Of a DNA stretch of 18,245 nucleotides, positions 6,569-15,928 are shown piece after piece; the stretch's first letter is position 1; every line of letters begins with the position of its first letter. The notes beneath the pieces are model-generated. The model made no database searches, was not told where the DNA came from, and worked only from the letters and a program-made list of their open reading frames with translations. Origin of the DNA: Candidatus Thorarchaeota archaeon (GTDB lineage: Archaea > Asgardarchaeota > Thorarchaeia > Thorarchaeales > Thorarchaeaceae); assembly GCA_019057475.1 (NCBI GenBank), contig DXJO01000032.1:1-18245 (forward strand). The letters are read 5' to 3'. A program made the position numbers and the translations under genes.

Positions 6569-7480
6569 GATACAGACAACTTTTCCAGTGGTGAACAGAC
6601 TTATTCTACAACTCTTACGAGTCTTCGAGACTTCTACTACATGCACAAGGTGAAGCGCGTACAGGAGGTCCTAGAAATTAGTGGTCAGAATGAAACGAAC
6701 AGGTTGATCAATCTGTGCGAGAGAATATTGAAGATTCAGGGCACTTCCGTGTCAAGAGAGGAATTCGGGGTTGTTAGTTCTCCCAAGGGCACATTCTATG
6801 GTGATGTTACGTTATCAGACCTCTCGGGCAAGCAACTCAACTGCTCAGGTGCTGGAGAATACGGTTGGTTCATCTCCTCGAAGCCTTTTGATGTAAAAAT
6901 CCATGACATCAACATTGATGCTGCAATCTTCGTTGAGAAGGAAGCCATGGCAAGAAACCTTATCGAACTCAAACTGCCTGAAACTCTAAAGGTCGGGGTA
7001 GGTTCGCTATTTGGACAGCCAGGGAGGAACATGAGAGCATGGATTAGACGCCTCGCGGACAATGGTGTGCCAATCCTCGTACTTGTTGACATGTCTCCAT
7101 GGTCACTGCGCATTTTCTCCACAATCAAGAGCAACTCTATCGAGCTCTCAAACATCCGGGGTCTCGCAACCCCCTCTGCGAAGCTACTCGGTCTGACGAC
7201 AACAGATTTTTGGCGCAAGAACGGCATGCTAACTGCAATTGAGCACTCATTGGAAAACATGTCCAAGTCAGACCTGAAGTGCGCTCAACAGAACCGCAAG
7301 ATACCGGCAATCAATGAAGACCCAATCCTTCGAAGGGAGAACGAAGCACTCCTCAAGAAACGCAAGAAAGGAGAACTTGAAGCATTCAAGGCATTTGGAC
7401 TGCCTCTCACTAGTCTCAGGAAGCTCTACGTTGATTACATCAAGCGTAAGTCACGTGGCTTCAATGTGAAACTGATATAA
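6569..7480 (+). CDS. divergent DNA topoisomerase VI subunit A / Spo11-like protein, 5' end disrupted
   Basis: TSLRDFYY (catalytic Tyr motif) lies in frame immediately before track ATG 6641. Also present: REEFGVVSSPKG, FVEKEA (TOPRIM Glu), GQPGRNMR, LVDMSPW (DxD position) and KGELEA. There is an in-frame TGA at 6566-6568 and no standard start codon between it and the YY. Confidence 0.85.
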   Translation, partial: DTDNFSSGEQTYSTTLTSLRDFYYMHKVKRVQEVLEISGQNETNRLINLCERILKIQGTSVSREEFGVVSSPKGTFYGDVTLSDLSGKQLNCSGAGEYGWFISSKPFDVKIHDINIDAAIFVEKEAMARNLIELKLPETLKVGVGSLFGQPGRNMRAWIRRLADNGVPILVLVDMSPWSLRIFSTIKSNSIELSNIRGLATPSAKLLGLTTTDFWRKNGMLTAIEHSLENMSKSDLKCAQQNRKIPAINEDPILRRENEALLKKRKKGELEAFKAFGLPLTSLRKLYVDYIKRKSRGFNVKLI

Positions 7481-7516
7481 AGCTCGAATGCCACGGGGGG
7501 AGTGAGGAGAGCCTTC

Positions 7517-8188
7517 ATGAGTGAAGAAAAGGAGAATATGCTAAACCTCTTCGAGGAGTTCAAAACCACCCTTGTCGACCTTATTGATGACAGGGATAAG
7601 CTTGCCAGCGAAATCGAGGAACTACGAACTGCAAGAAGAGAAGCCGATGAAAAGGCGTGGGCTGCGGACGAGAAGGTCAAGAATTTGGAATCAGACCTTG
7701 AAGCCGCTGTAACGAAGGGCGATAAGGCAACTTCAAAGGTCAGCTCGCTCAAAGAGCAAGTTAAGGAGTTGAAGAGCAAGCTTAGAGAAGCAGAAGCCTC
7801 AAGCACTGATGCCATAGATGCCATCGTGAAAGAGCGCGACGAGCTTAGGACGGAGATGAATGAGATAACCTCGAAGCTCTCGCGTGTATCTGAGCTCTAT
7901 CGGGAAACTTCTGCTGAAAAGGAAGCGCTCCAAGAGAAGGTTGATGTCAGTGATCTGCTTGGAATCTACATAGTGCTTCTTGAAACTGTCTTCTATGGAA
8001 AGCCTCATGCAAGAATATTGTATACACTACATGACATCAAGAAGCCAATCACAAGGAAAAACCTTGCTGATAGTTCAGGCATAATGCCAGCTCAAGTCCT
8101 CAAGGCGATTCACGATCTGGCGAATGAAAACCTGGTTTCATACAACGAGGACACCCAACAAGTTACTCTGAAGAAGGAGATCATGTAG
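7517..8188 (+). CDS. coiled-coil protein with C-terminal winged-helix domain
   Basis: About 140 aa of E/K/L heptads, then PHARILYTLH..ITRKNLADSSGIMPAQVLKAIHDLANENLVSY (wHTH pattern). GAGGAG RBS before ATG 7517. Confidence 0.8.
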   Translation: MSEEKENMLNLFEEFKTTLVDLIDDRDKLASEIEELRTARREADEKAWAADEKVKNLESDLEAAVTKGDKATSKVSSLKEQVKELKSKLREAEASSTDAIDAIVKERDELRTEMNEITSKLSRVSELYRETSAEKEALQEKVDVSDLLGIYIVLLETVFYGKPHARILYTLHDIKKPITRKNLADSSGIMPAQVLKAIHDLANENLVSYNEDTQQVTLKKEIM

Positions 8189-9349: not shown

Positions 9350-9742
9350 TTGCTAAATATGCCAGACGAGGATGCGACCGAACAACTCAAGATGATCCTG
9401 CGCGATCTCAGTAGCAGGTCGCCGATTCTGGGAGCAGCGATATTCTCTGTGGAGGGCTTACCACTTGTTAGCTACTTCCACGCTGGCATTGAGGTAGCAT
9501 CTATTGCCGCAATGGTAGCGAGCATTCAGTCAGTTGGGGAGCTGGCTGTCAAAGAGCTTCGCCAAGGGGACCTGAAATCGATTATCATTCAAGGCACACT
9601 AGGTACAACAGTAGTTATCTCGATTCCAGATTCCTACTTGCTTGCGGTGACAGCGCCAGAGAACGTCAAGCTCGGACTTATTTTTAACGATGCAAAGGTG
9701 TACGCCAAAAAGATGACAGGGATTCTGCGCAATCTAAGGTGA
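9350..9742 (+). CDS. Roadblock/LC7 (MglB/LAMTOR2-like) domain protein
   Basis: ILGAAIFSVEGLPL, IAAMVASIQSVGE, ELRQGDLKSIIIQGTLG, LLAVTAPENVKLGLIF. The size of about 130 aa fits. ATG 9359 is an alternative start. Confidence 0.92.
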   Translation: MLNMPDEDATEQLKMILRDLSSRSPILGAAIFSVEGLPLVSYFHAGIEVASIAAMVASIQSVGELAVKELRQGDLKSIIIQGTLGTTVVISIPDSYLLAVTAPENVKLGLIFNDAKVYAKKMTGILRNLR

Positions 9743-10579
9743 GTGGCCTCCACTATGGGGCGGGCTTATCCTTTTACTCATCACCCCTGTTGGTCACGTA
9801 ATCGCGATGGGCTATGGGCCAGGATACACCTGCCGGTAGCACACTCCTGTAACGTGAAATGCGGATACTGCGATCATCAATTGGACGCCTCCGGCCATAT
9901 GCCAGTGCCTGGCCGATCAAGAAGGGTGATGACTCCAACTCAAGCAATCAAAGTAACTCGTGATGAGCTTGGGAAAGACCCGAATCTACGCATTGTCGCG
10001 ATTTCGGGGCCAGGCGAACCACTTGCGTGTCCGCAAACATTCAAGACTCTGCAAGGGATTAGAGCGTTGAGTGCTAACATAGATTTCTGCTTGAGCACTA
10101 ACGGAGTGCTGCTGGAAGAGAAGACAAAGCAACTGATCGAGCTCGGGGCAAGGACAATTAGTGTGACAATGAGCACCGTATCCCCTGAAACCGCCTCGCA
10201 AATCTATGAATGGGCGATGATTGATGGCAAGCGGCTAACAGGACCTGAAATGGGAGAGAAGGTCATCGATGCACAGCTCAGGGGCATCTCTTCTGCTACC
10301 AAGTCAGGTGTGTTTGTTAAGGTGAACTCGATACTCATTCCCGAAATGAATGGAGAACAAATGGAAAATCTGGCAAGAGCCCTGAGAGATGCTGGTGCAC
10401 GTCTTCAAAATATCGTCCCACTCATACCATTTGACAACATGGTAAATGAGCGACCACCTACACAGAATGAACTTCAAGATGCAAGAAACAGAGCTTCTCG
10501 CTTTATGGAGCAGTTTTACCACTGCAGACAATGCAGAAGCGATGTTGTAGGGATACCCGGCGCAGACCGTATCCTTTAG
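9743..10579 (+). CDS. NifB-like radical SAM protein (stand-alone SAM domain, divergent)
   Basis: HPC, RIHLPVA, CNVKCGYC, SGPGEPLA, CLSTNG, KVNSILIP, NIVPLIP and HCRQCRSDVVG. The NifB ExRP and TxTxN motifs are not conserved. Confidence 0.88.
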   Translation: MASTMGRAYPFTHHPCWSRNRDGLWARIHLPVAHSCNVKCGYCDHQLDASGHMPVPGRSRRVMTPTQAIKVTRDELGKDPNLRIVAISGPGEPLACPQTFKTLQGIRALSANIDFCLSTNGVLLEEKTKQLIELGARTISVTMSTVSPETASQIYEWAMIDGKRLTGPEMGEKVIDAQLRGISSATKSGVFVKVNSILIPEMNGEQMENLARALRDAGARLQNIVPLIPFDNMVNERPPTQNELQDARNRASRFMEQFYHCRQCRSDVVGIPGADRIL

Positions 10580-11403
10580 CTAGATGTTTTCTGGGCCAAG
10601 CACCCCACTTCAACTAGCTTGTTAATCAGGAACCACAAAGCTTGCTGATCATAGGGCAATTCTTCAATCACTTGGGTTATTGTCATTACGCCGTCAAAAT
10701 GGTTCAGCATGTCATCAACCGGTTTCCCATACATTGCTTTGATACTATTCAGAGTTATATCCGGACATTCTTGCGTCACCAGAATGTCATTGTCGGTGAG
10801 TCGCCTTTTGAAATCACACCACTCGTACTTGTGCAGCATCGAAAACAATGCTAAGACTTGTTTCTCAGGCAAGTCAATCAGGTCCATTATCTCTGCCACA
10901 GTTCGTTTGCCGTTAATGAAAGCCTCCAACTGCTCTAGCTTGCTGTCGACAGACCCGACTCTAAAAGGGATTATGAGGCCCTTCCTATTCTTGAAAGGTA
11001 CGAGGTCTATGTCAATCGCAAAGAACGGAAACTCCATTAGTATCTCAAGGGAGAACTCGCGGAATCGTCGAACATCGCCTTCAAACTTCTTAAGCTTAGC
11101 ACCATGCTTCTCTTCCACATTCTCAAGGATTCTGTTCAATCGTTCACGGTATGGCGCTTCACTAGGCACGGGATCAACAACAAGCAGGACAAGGACGGTT
11201 TCTCCAACCTCAATTAGGATATCATAAGCCGCTTTCCGAATTGTCCTAATGGGGGTTTTGGCGAAGATTATCACTGCAGTGACAAAGCCCGCAATCAGGT
11301 CAGGGTCAATGGACATCTCTTCATAGGGCAGACTGAGTATTGATTCGCCCCCTTCTAGGCGAATCAGTGAGATGTACCGCACCTTGGATACGTCGAGTGC
11401 CAT
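10576..11403 (-). CDS. longin-like domain + two winged-helix repeats (NPRL2-like architecture), paralog A
   Basis: N-terminal IDPDLIAGFVTAVIIF...FEGDVRRFREF (Asgard longin-type signature). Repeats FINGKRTVAEI and HFDGVMTITQV, each followed by a helix and L...(G/W) strand. GGAAGGG before the ATG. Confidence 0.75.
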   Translation of the reverse strand: MALDVSKVRYISLIRLEGGESILSLPYEEMSIDPDLIAGFVTAVIIFAKTPIRTIRKAAYDILIEVGETVLVLLVVDPVPSEAPYRERLNRILENVEEKHGAKLKKFEGDVRRFREFSLEILMEFPFFAIDIDLVPFKNRKGLIIPFRVGSVDSKLEQLEAFINGKRTVAEIMDLIDLPEKQVLALFSMLHKYEWCDFKRRLTDNDILVTQECPDITLNSIKAMYGKPVDDMLNHFDGVMTITQVIEELPYDQQALWFLINKLVEVGCLAQKTSS

Positions 11404-11453
11404 GCTACCAACCCTTCCTAGTCACTATGTAACTCCCACTGCAGGACCCGCAT

Positions 11454-11472
11454 TTCACACATTCCATGTGAA
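11454..11472. promoter_or_regulatory. inverted repeat TTCACA-N7-TGTGAA, possible operator or hairpin
   Basis: Perfect 6-bp arms between the two longin genes, immediately downstream (minus strand) of an ATTATTAT element. Confidence 0.3.
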
Positions 11473-11513
11473 GGGCACCATAATAATCTCTTGGCCTCTG
11501 AGCTAAGCACGAA

Positions 11514-12386
11514 TTACTCAGTGGACCCGCCTCCTTCGCTCGACTGTTCGCGGTAACCCAGCACACCTGCATCAATCAGGTTCTTGGCAATTGTAATAAG
11601 AACCTCAATATCGAACGGAACTAGCTCACACACTTGCTCAAGTGTTCTCGTTCCATCGCACATCTCCGCGAAATCATCCAGTTGGTCGCCGTATACACCA
11701 ATAAGACGCTTTGGGGTATCGGTCAGTTTTACAAGCACTGTGTCCTTGTTTGCACGACGCGAAAGCGTAATCCATTTGAACCGGTCCAGCATGGAGAATA
11801 TTGCCGTTAACTCGGCTTCAGAGTAGCCGGAAGATTTAACGATCTCCCTAATGGTTCGTTTCCCATTGATATAGCCAACAACGGTTTGTATCTTCTTGTC
11901 TGTTTCACCCACACTCCAAGGGATTGCTACCTGGCAGTTAGGCGTCACATCCGACTTCTTAATCAGTTCAGGAACGAGCTGCCAATCAAACCGTCTATAT
12001 GGGAACACACCAAGGATGTCAATCCCGAATTCTCTGAACGGGCGAATGTCACCCCTCCATAGGGTGAGCTGCAGTTCATACTTGGCCTCGAAATCTGATA
12101 TAATTCCCTTTAACGCTTCACGATATGGTTCGTCATCCTCCACTTTATCGATAATGAGCAACCCTACAACATGATCGCCTTCCTCTATCACAACCACATA
12201 GCCTTCCTTGATGAATGTTCGAAGCTGCTGATTCTCAAAAATTACAATTGCTAATACAAAGCTGGCAACAAGATCAGGATCGACACTCATCTCTCTAAAC
12301 GTAATGCCTAAAACTGGCTCACCGCCGTCTTTTCTAACTAATGAAACGTAGCGAACAATTTCCTCGTTCAAGGGCATGTGGCTCAA
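11514..12386 (-). CDS. longin-like domain + two winged-helix repeats (NPRL2-like architecture), paralog B
   Basis: VDPDLVASFVLAIVIF...WRGDIRPFREF, with repeats YINGKRTIREI and MCDGTRTLEQV. Colinear with 10576..11403. AACCTTTTAT TATA-like element about 25 nt upstream. Confidence 0.75.
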   Translation of the reverse strand: MSHMPLNEEIVRYVSLVRKDGGEPVLGITFREMSVDPDLVASFVLAIVIFENQQLRTFIKEGYVVVIEEGDHVVGLLIIDKVEDDEPYREALKGIISDFEAKYELQLTLWRGDIRPFREFGIDILGVFPYRRFDWQLVPELIKKSDVTPNCQVAIPWSVGETDKKIQTVVGYINGKRTIREIVKSSGYSEAELTAIFSMLDRFKWITLSRRANKDTVLVKLTDTPKRLIGVYGDQLDDFAEMCDGTRTLEQVCELVPFDIEVLITIAKNLIDAGVLGYREQSSEGGGSTE

Positions 12387-14476: not shown

Positions 14477-15928
14477 TTAGCTCAAATCTATCTTTTCACG
14501 TGTCAATACGAGCTTCTCACCATCGACGATCTTAGCAATGCCCAATTGTTGGAAGTCTTCAGCCCATTGCATAACTATAGCTGGGGCTACACCCATGGAG
14601 CGGGCAATCTCTCTTATCGACATCTCAATGTTGTCTTCCACCATGAGGAACGCTTTAGTCTTCTCTGTTCGGCCCATTAAGCCAAGGTAACCACGCAAAG
14701 CCTCTTCAGTGAGCTGTAGCTTCACCTGCGCCGCCTTGTAATCATTGGTGGTCCTCTCATGACTGGCTGAAATCCGATCAAGTTCAGTCTTCACACGCTC
14801 AAGCTCTCTTGCACTTTCACCCGACTCGGAGGAACGAAGGCGTGCTCGTAATTCATCAACTCCAGCAAGCCGTTCATTTGCCTTTTTCAGCTCATCCTCG
14901 AAGTGTCTGATGTTGCCTCCAAGGTCCTCAATCAGTAGGTCGTTCTTATTCTTGGCATCGCGAAGCTGACGGTTCTCGATCTGGGTAGCTTGAAGTTCCT
15001 GAGAGGCGTCTTCCAATCGGTCATTAAGCAAGTCATGAATTGTTTCCATGGACTTGATGTGCTTACGAAGCTCAGCGACCGTTTCCGCTTCAGCTGCTGG
15101 CGATGCTCGAAGGCTAGCCACGGTTTCCTCTAGACTCTCGTTCCGTGCCTTCATTCCAGCAAGTTCGCTCCGCAATGACTCAATGTCATTCTCTCGATTT
15201 TGTATCTTCTCGGTTGCCACGGTTAAGTTACGCTCTAGTTCCTTAACATGGCGAGAAAGTGCCTTCAATTGTTCTTCTACTTCCTTCGGAATGGCCACCT
15301 TTGGTTTCATGGTCAGCTCCGTCGATAGGAATTCCACCTCTGTGGAGAGTCGCTGTGTGAAATCATCAATGCTGGCTTTCAAGGTTGTGAGTTCATCGTG
15401 GGTTTCATTCGCGGCATCCTTGAGAGTGTCGGTCAACACTCGAATCTTTTCAAGAATCGGTGCCGACATTCCAGAGGTCAGGGTTTCCTCAATCGCTGCG
15501 AACTCTTCCTCAATGATGGGTGTCACCGCGGTGTCAAAATAGACGTCCTGGAGGTTGGTCTTCGCACGCCTTTTGCTCTTCGCGATAATCGTGCTCCGGA
15601 GATTCACAAGGTTGCCCTTCAAGCCGACCAGAAAGGAAAGCATTACGGGTATGAGATCACGCTCAATATGATCAATCCCATCGTTGATCAAGTTGAGATT
15701 TCTTTCCACGTGACGAGTACTCTCTCGGAAACGGCCAATGCTCTTGTCCATCTCAATGCGTCGCCGAACTTGGTCCGCAGATTCCACCCTGAGAACATCC
15801 TTTGTCATGCGACCCGATTCGACTAGCTCCTTCTTCATGGCTTCATCGATACCGAGCTCTGCGAGCATCTTGTCAACTACTGAATCTCTGCCTTTTTCTG
15901 GAATTTTCTCTTCGGGTTTCTTGCTCAT
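14477..15928 (-). CDS. long coiled-coil protein with C-terminal winged-helix domain
   Basis: 483 aa, helical N-terminus and about 200 aa of heptads. The C-terminus KAFLMVEDNIEMSIREIARSMGVAPAIVMQWAEDFQQLGIAKI is wHTH-like. GAGG RBS. No Walker A motif. Confidence 0.8.
   Translation of the reverse strand: MSKKPEEKIPEKGRDSVVDKMLAELGIDEAMKKELVESGRMTKDVLRVESADQVRRRIEMDKSIGRFRESTRHVERNLNLINDGIDHIERDLIPVMLSFLVGLKGNLVNLRSTIIAKSKRRAKTNLQDVYFDTAVTPIIEEEFAAIEETLTSGMSAPILEKIRVLTDTLKDAANETHDELTTLKASIDDFTQRLSTEVEFLSTELTMKPKVAIPKEVEEQLKALSRHVKELERNLTVATEKIQNRENDIESLRSELAGMKARNESLEETVASLRASPAAEAETVAELRKHIKSMETIHDLLNDRLEDASQELQATQIENRQLRDAKNKNDLLIEDLGGNIRHFEDELKKANERLAGVDELRARLRSSESGESARELERVKTELDRISASHERTTNDYKAAQVKLQLTEEALRGYLGLMGRTEKTKAFLMVEDNIEMSIREIARSMGVAPAIVMQWAEDFQQLGIAKIVDGEKLVLTREKIDLS

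Follow-up and report, generated by a model that had tools for sequence, protein, structure and literature searches.

Whether two adjacent genes of a Candidatus Thorarchaeota archaeon encode an archaeal relative of the NPRL2/NPRL3 pair of GATOR1, and what such a pair might do, is the question raised by the DNA analysed here, an 18,245-nucleotide window that comprises the entire contig C12 (DXJO01000032.1) of a 3.34-Mb genome, 96% complete, and whose named protein homologues are nearly all from Thorarchaeota. A sequence-only reading had proposed that the two genes, termed A and B, form an archaeal GATOR1/Ragulator-like module together with a nearby Roadblock gene. The homology to NPRL2/NPRL3, the conservation of the pair and a link between the module and small GTPases at other loci sustain that proposal in part, whereas a GATOR1-type GTPase-activating protein (GAP) and a Ragulator-like role are not supported. 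By sequence comparison and predicted structure, genes A and B are a real, conserved NPRL2-homologous gene pair and a lineage-specific variant of a published family.

Gene A (10576–11403, minus strand) encodes a protein of 275 residues displaying an NPRL2-like module, in which a longin domain (residues 7–126; 11026–11385, minus strand) is followed by an LVP linker and two winged helices. The linker (residues 134–136) and the first winged helix (wH1, residues 150–200), which together span 10804–11004 on the minus strand, contain the part that matches NPRL2 residues 171–266 in sequence, and the second winged helix (wH2, residues 207–271; 10591–10785, minus strand) is acidic. Gene B (11514–12386, minus strand) lies upstream of A, separated from it by 110 bp, and is a paralogue of equal architecture. 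Its 290-residue frame opens at TTG 12386 and holds the longin at residues 11–129 (12000–12356, minus strand) and the winged helices at residues 160–209 and 217–278 (11553–11909, minus strand); an alternative start at ATG 12377 gives 287 residues and corresponds to the start of the database protein. The description of A and B as adjacent, co-oriented and colinear paralogues was borne out by 38% identity over 282 colinear columns (E 3e-65), and every motif named in that description, the LVP linker, INGKRTxxEI in wH1 and DGxxTxxQV in wH2, is present. A BLAST comparison of wH1 with wH2 detected no similarity; it is the motif and the model that suggest an internal repeat.

The AlphaFold2 models of A and B (mean predicted local distance difference test of 88 and 80, respectively) display a five-stranded longin, a linker strand and two winged helices. 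In Foldseek searches GATOR1/SEACIT chains hold the top 11 ranks with A and the top 10 with B, the best E being 2e-7. Whole-chain comparison with NPRL2/3-type chains gives template-modelling (TM) scores of 0.33–0.38, root-mean-square deviations (rmsd) of 10–14 Å and structure-based identities of 8–14%, and the Npr2 chain 8adl_S aligns with the model over 246 residues (Z 10.2, rmsd 12.3). The sequence match resides in the C-terminal half, whose family profile finds human NPRL2 (E 6.7e-7, residues 171–266) and yeast Npr2 (E 1e-6) among the PDB sequences, while the next match, at 5e-3, stands nearly four orders of magnitude behind. This preference makes the NPRL2 link real and answers the concern that the repeats might match only generic PqqD or helix-turn-helix (HTH) folds, the same profile giving PqqD an E of 0.11. 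The profile alignment places the LVP linker on DVPV of NPRL2 and INGKRT on IDGFRH, and the NPRL2 motif cited in the earlier reading (DVPVF...QILPYIDG.RHI..I) proved correct and aligns to the linker and wH1.

NPRL2 was reached with the diverse family profiles (A4, A6) only; single-sequence and close-family searches of the PDB sequences found nothing, and Pfam and NCBIfam hold no significant family for A or B. The Pfam family NPR2 (PF06218) has no match in the genome of origin and none above the cut-off in 151 Asgard genomes, one homologue matching it at E 0.012, while HTH_NPRL3 is matched below the cut-off by 13 of 60 family members. Homology to the NPRL2 C-lobe is nevertheless well supported, the fold and the C-terminal sequence match being observed. 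With NPRL2/NPRL3 of GATOR1 (Npr2/Npr3 of the yeast SEACIT) the two proteins share the domain order, the sequence match across linker and wH1, and the organisation as a paralogous pair. In contrast, A and B are approximately 100 residues shorter, are without the GP motif, the arginine-finger loop and DEPDC5, and were duplicated independently. A one-to-one correspondence of A and B with NPRL2 and NPRL3 is not supported, as chains of the Npr2/NPRL2 type lead, or nearly lead, the ranking for either protein and the gene duplication is internal to Thorarchaeia.

The longin of A and B is generic. The best matches of the longin-half profile are the longins Bet5 and Mon1 of guanine nucleotide exchange factors (GEFs), at a non-significant E of 0.016–0.03; NPRL2 is not listed at E up to 10 by the longin-only profile and its chains fall outside the top 50 in a structural search with the longin, neither of which excludes homology. 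The longin-dimer GEF platforms (Mon1-Ccz1 and TRAPP Bet5-Trs23, with the weak sequence matches to Bet5 and Mon1) and the SNARE/adaptin longins (Z 13–16 for the SNARE longins) share a plain longin fold with A and B, but none has their two winged helices. Conservation is concentrated in the longin, which in 52 orthologues of A displays 63 invariant columns out of 126, and whose first helix is almost invariant; the C-terminal part has only 20 such columns out of 149.

Gene order supports the conservation of the pair in relatives, as B and A stand side by side in 37 of the 40 genomes of the family, with a spacing of −4 to 3 bp in 5 of the 10 loci measured. The three remaining genomes, all of genus g4, carry A only (L098, L099 and L100); here B and the upstream DUF2797 gene were lost together and A directly follows the AmmeMemoRadiSam gene. 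In another genome (G299, L054) DUF2797 alone is missing, and in a further one (G152, L055) B is split and so is the NifB-like gene, possibly through sequencing errors. The sister family f2 has a single copy at the same place, with about 30% identity to each of A and B. In a tree of Asgard homologues, A (100/99) and B (100/98) form separate clades, with the g4 genes nested in A. A weakly supported group (91/75) unites A, B, the extra copies from scattered sites and the f2 gene, to the exclusion of the single homologues found in f8, f15 and f19. On these grounds (the separate clades, the single f2 copy and the grouping apart from f8, f15 and f19) the duplication is placed within Thorarchaeia by the sequence data. 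The identity of 38% between A and B, compared with only 8–14% to NPRL2/3, suggests that this duplication is distinct from that of NPRL2/NPRL3. An obligate pair is contradicted by the lone A of g4 and the single copy of f2. The extra single A-related copies (L101, L102, L103, L108 and L109) encode 205–302 residues, some with one winged helix, and lie near genes resembling aldehyde oxidoreductases and ABC transporters.

About ten further proteins of the genome carry all or part of the longin-wH-wH module, in unrelated contexts. On contig C52 a protein of 641 residues comprises a longin, an intact Arf-like GTPase, a linker and a longin-wH-wH module, and its upstream neighbour of 571 residues repeats this layout but has lost the G motifs (hhalign 96.8%, E 2.6e-10). 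This tandem pair (C52:25848–29589, minus strand, L118), retained by all 8 of the family genomes that were fetched, has a Rag-like GTPase/pseudo-GTPase design and is more striking than the A/B pair; in f2 a fusion of the C52 type is present with no recognised partner. A third tandem pair (C29:19256–21567, minus strand, L119) encodes proteins of 303 and 430 residues whose longin and winged-helix parts match the same profile. Outside the family, a single longin-wH-wH homologue in f8 (G007, L104:6591–10358) is co-oriented with a longin-Arf GTPase, in a cluster that runs from a 351-residue longin-like protein through the GTPase, a 180-residue protein and the homologue to a 157-residue protein. The GTPase of the genome of origin closest to that of the f8 cluster is encoded at C31:19425–20306 and may be a client. 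In f16 one homologue lies beside a GTPase gene and a Roadblock gene. The C52 fusions, the f8 cluster and the f16 neighbours are the strongest indication that small GTPases are the working partners of the module, and support a putative GTPase-docking role for it.

Longin GAPs are marked by a GP motif that precedes strand 2, together with an arginine finger (PMC12290439). The commonest sequence of the loop before longin strand 2 is GGES in A and GGEP in B, and a GP motif was found neither in the listed A/B loop variants nor in a 53-row wider alignment. The arginine finger of NPRL2, Arg78, is presumably located in the β4–β5 loop; judged from this position with alignments and models, the equivalent link in A and B is a turn of three residues, none of whose columns is an arginine column across the 121 A and 120 B sequences compared. 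Published accounts place the finger (NPRL2 Arg78/Npr2 Arg84) on a 'loop of the longin domain'. Invariant arginines in other longin loops (R53 and R56 of A, R31 of B) could supply a non-canonical finger. DEPDC5/IML1 (PF12257) has no match in the genome of origin, 96% complete, in which nine weak Gtr1_RagA matches were found. On the motifs tested A and B are therefore unlikely to be GATOR1-type GAPs. Similarly to A and B, the Heimdallarchaeial longins described as FLCN/SMCR8-type (PMC12290439) are Asgard longins related to eukaryotic GAP complexes, but they differ in keeping both the GP motif and the arginine finger.

The reading that joins these observations takes A and B as paralogues, confined to Thorarchaeia, of an Asgard longin-wH-wH module that shares ancestry with the NPRL2/NPRL3 core, as fold, C-terminal match and tree indicate. 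From gene order and the behaviour of longins, the two proteins are probably co-expressed and would pair through their longins as A:B, or as A:A where B was lost. The conserved longin face of the dimer would dock a small GTPase encoded elsewhere, by analogy with C9orf72-SMCR8, in which parallel longin helices contact the GTPase switches (PMC8213707), while the winged-helix lobes may bind each other or further partners. With neither GP motif nor arginine-finger loop, such a dimer is more likely to act as a scaffold, an effector or a GEF-like/allosteric regulator than as a GATOR1-type GAP, and the Roadblock neighbour would not be needed. As a whole, this reading of a longin-paired, GTPase-docking dimer is tentatively preferred, at slightly less than an even chance.

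Several observations weigh against a GTPase-docking A:B dimer. The 5 kb on either side of A/B contain no GTPase gene, and several single homologues in other families likewise have no adjoining GTPase. Asgard GTPases are many (16 by motif in the genome of origin), and some adjacency is thus due to chance. The isolated longin finds its best structural matches in the SNARE longins Sec22b and VAMP7 (Z 15.7, rmsd 2.2, 119 residues aligned), and some longins, e.g. those of SNAREs, work without GTPases (PMC10933270). Two of the three g4 genomes without B are 98–99% complete, so that the pair is not obligate. The evidence bearing on an A:B heterodimer is that of gene order, namely the adjacency in most family genomes and the loss of B in g4; a complex prediction with alignments scored 0.01 against a mark of 0.32, with controls that were not folded, and speaks neither for nor against binding.

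The alternative that survives best, although it is itself rather unlikely, holds that A and B are independent, subfunctionalised paralogues, acting as homodimers or monomers with different partners, and that their adjacency is only the record of a duplication. The single copies of f2 and other Asgard families, the lone A of g4 and the extra A-related copies scattered singly through several genomes are consistent with this view, as are the Asgard Roadblock/longin structures, which are homodimers (PMC10933270), and PDB entry 8yqg, listed as a dimeric longin. The tandem order retained in nearly all family genomes, with abutting reading frames in several, argues against it, and so do the two further tandem module pairs of the same genome on C52 and C29, which suggest a repeated conversion of homodimers to heterodimers. 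A further and likewise rather unlikely reading has A:B truly regulating, as a heterodimer, one of the small GTPases of Thorarchaeia, such as the C52 fusion or the C31 longin-GTPase; the pair would then be an archaeal counterpart of NPRL2-NPRL3 in function, its heterodimer state having arisen through an independent duplication.

The original proposal in its full form, in which A:B acts as a heterodimeric, GATOR1-like GAP on a Rag/Arf-like GTPase and the Roadblock protein joins it as a Ragulator-like part, is considerably less probable. Architecture and C-lobe homology agree with it, and the invariant arginines might provide its finger; the missing GP motif, the arginine-free turn in all 241 sequences and the absence of an IML1/DEPDC5 match speak against it, as does the description of the Heimdallarchaeial longins that retain GP motif and finger as FLCN/SMCR8-type (PMC12290439). 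The Roadblock/LC7 gene (9350–9742, plus strand; PF03259, E 2.9e-9) does lie where it had been placed, on the converging strand and with 833 bp between it and the end of A (about 830 bp in the earlier estimate). The gap is filled by a NifB-like radical S-adenosylmethionine (SAM) gene (9743–10579, plus strand) that the earlier reading had left unmentioned; the family has this gene between Roadblock and A, whereas f2 lacks it at that spot. The NifB-like protein covers only the first 280 positions of TIGR01290 and scores 224 bits, below the cut-off. The linkage is conserved in relatives, a Roadblock gene being near A/B in every fetched family locus that reaches that far, as part of a whole 13-kb block, from TopoVI-A to a PD-(D/E)XK nuclease, that is conserved alongside. 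Within this block the pair is accompanied as faithfully by the TopoVI-A, AmmeMemoRadiSam, transglutaminase and nuclease genes as by Roadblock. A dozen unrelated neighbours are linked to the pair at least as stably as Roadblock is, and the Ragulator-like role is not supported for that reason. The Roadblock gene is furthermore on the opposite strand, in a separate, converging transcription unit, and no Roadblock gene was recognised in the fetched flanks of the f8, f15 and f19 homologues. A 340-residue neighbour in the Roadblock operon was not found in five families outside Thorarchaeia. The proximity is ancestral in the order, the f2 single copy ending 49 bp from Roadblock. The genome has 13 Roadblock matches, and only one of 12 module loci, that of A/B, has one within 5 kb; a rough estimate puts the chance of such proximity at about 1% for one locus and below 10% across the module loci, which is not trivial. 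Compared with Ragulator (LAMTOR1-5) and MglB, the likeness is that the neighbour of A/B is a Roadblock/LC7 protein; the difference is that it is a single gene, without a LAMTOR1-like anchor or a GTPase beside it. Apart from block synteny nothing specific ties the Roadblock gene to A/B.

Slightly less credible still is a DNA-binding regulator whose longin would sense a signal or mediate dimerisation and whose winged helices would recognise DNA. Weak matches to MarR, TrmB, ArsR and HTH_47, the basic wH1 of B (isoelectric point, pI, 9.9) and the fusion of NPRL2-like longins to two-component signalling domains reported by Liu et al. (bioRxiv 10.1101/2020.10.19.343400) would suit it. In contrast, A and B are acidic overall (pI 5.0 and 4.8), wH2 has a pI of about 4.2, wH1 of A is neutral, the winged-helix lobe is poorly conserved, and the best sequence match, by nearly four orders of magnitude, is the protein-binding C-lobe of NPRL2. 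It is highly improbable that the winged helices serve radical SAM enzymes as peptide-binding adaptors of the PqqD/RRE kind. The radical SAM genes on both sides of the pair and PqqD matches in 6 of 60 members (best E 0.008) favour this reading; against it, PqqD scores far below NPRL2 with the profile (E 0.11 and 7e-7, respectively), no NifB-like gene adjoins the f2 copy, and the ten other module genes lie in unrelated contexts.

Elsewhere in the window, the TopoVI-A/Spo11 gene (6620–7480, plus strand) matches only residues 96–381 of a relative, and the N-terminal 95 residues were not found in the window, which points to truncation or an assembly fault. The stretches 7502–8188 (plus strand) and 14477–15928 (minus strand) encode two coiled-coil proteins with a terminal helix-turn-helix, to which no family was assigned, and are kept in the same conserved block.

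Liu et al. (bioRxiv 10.1101/2020.10.19.343400, Fig. 5c) describe a family that has the domain organisation of NPRL2 and is present in the majority of Thor genomes as well as a few from Loki. A and B display its features, a longin with an NPRL2-type C-terminal domain and presence in most Thor genomes, and very probably belong to it. The surprise is accordingly limited, the family being already published; the tandem A/B pair, the two winged helices, the missing GAP motifs and the GTPase fusion go unmentioned in the available portion of that report, and literature searches returned no publication that deals with the tandem pair or with its activity. How the nutrient-sensing regulators of mTORC1 arose is an open question, to which the present data contribute sequence-level support for the descent of the NPRL2 C-lobe from an Asgard longin-wH-wH module. 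They also advise caution against taking the pair as the ancestor of NPRL2/NPRL3, given Thorarchaeia's own duplication and the absent GAP motifs. As small, predicted soluble proteins with named candidate GTPases, A and B offer a way to test the function of this module before eukaryotes. Should A:B prove to be a GTPase regulator, it would show what role the GATOR1 core had before the arginine finger and DEPDC5 were gained.

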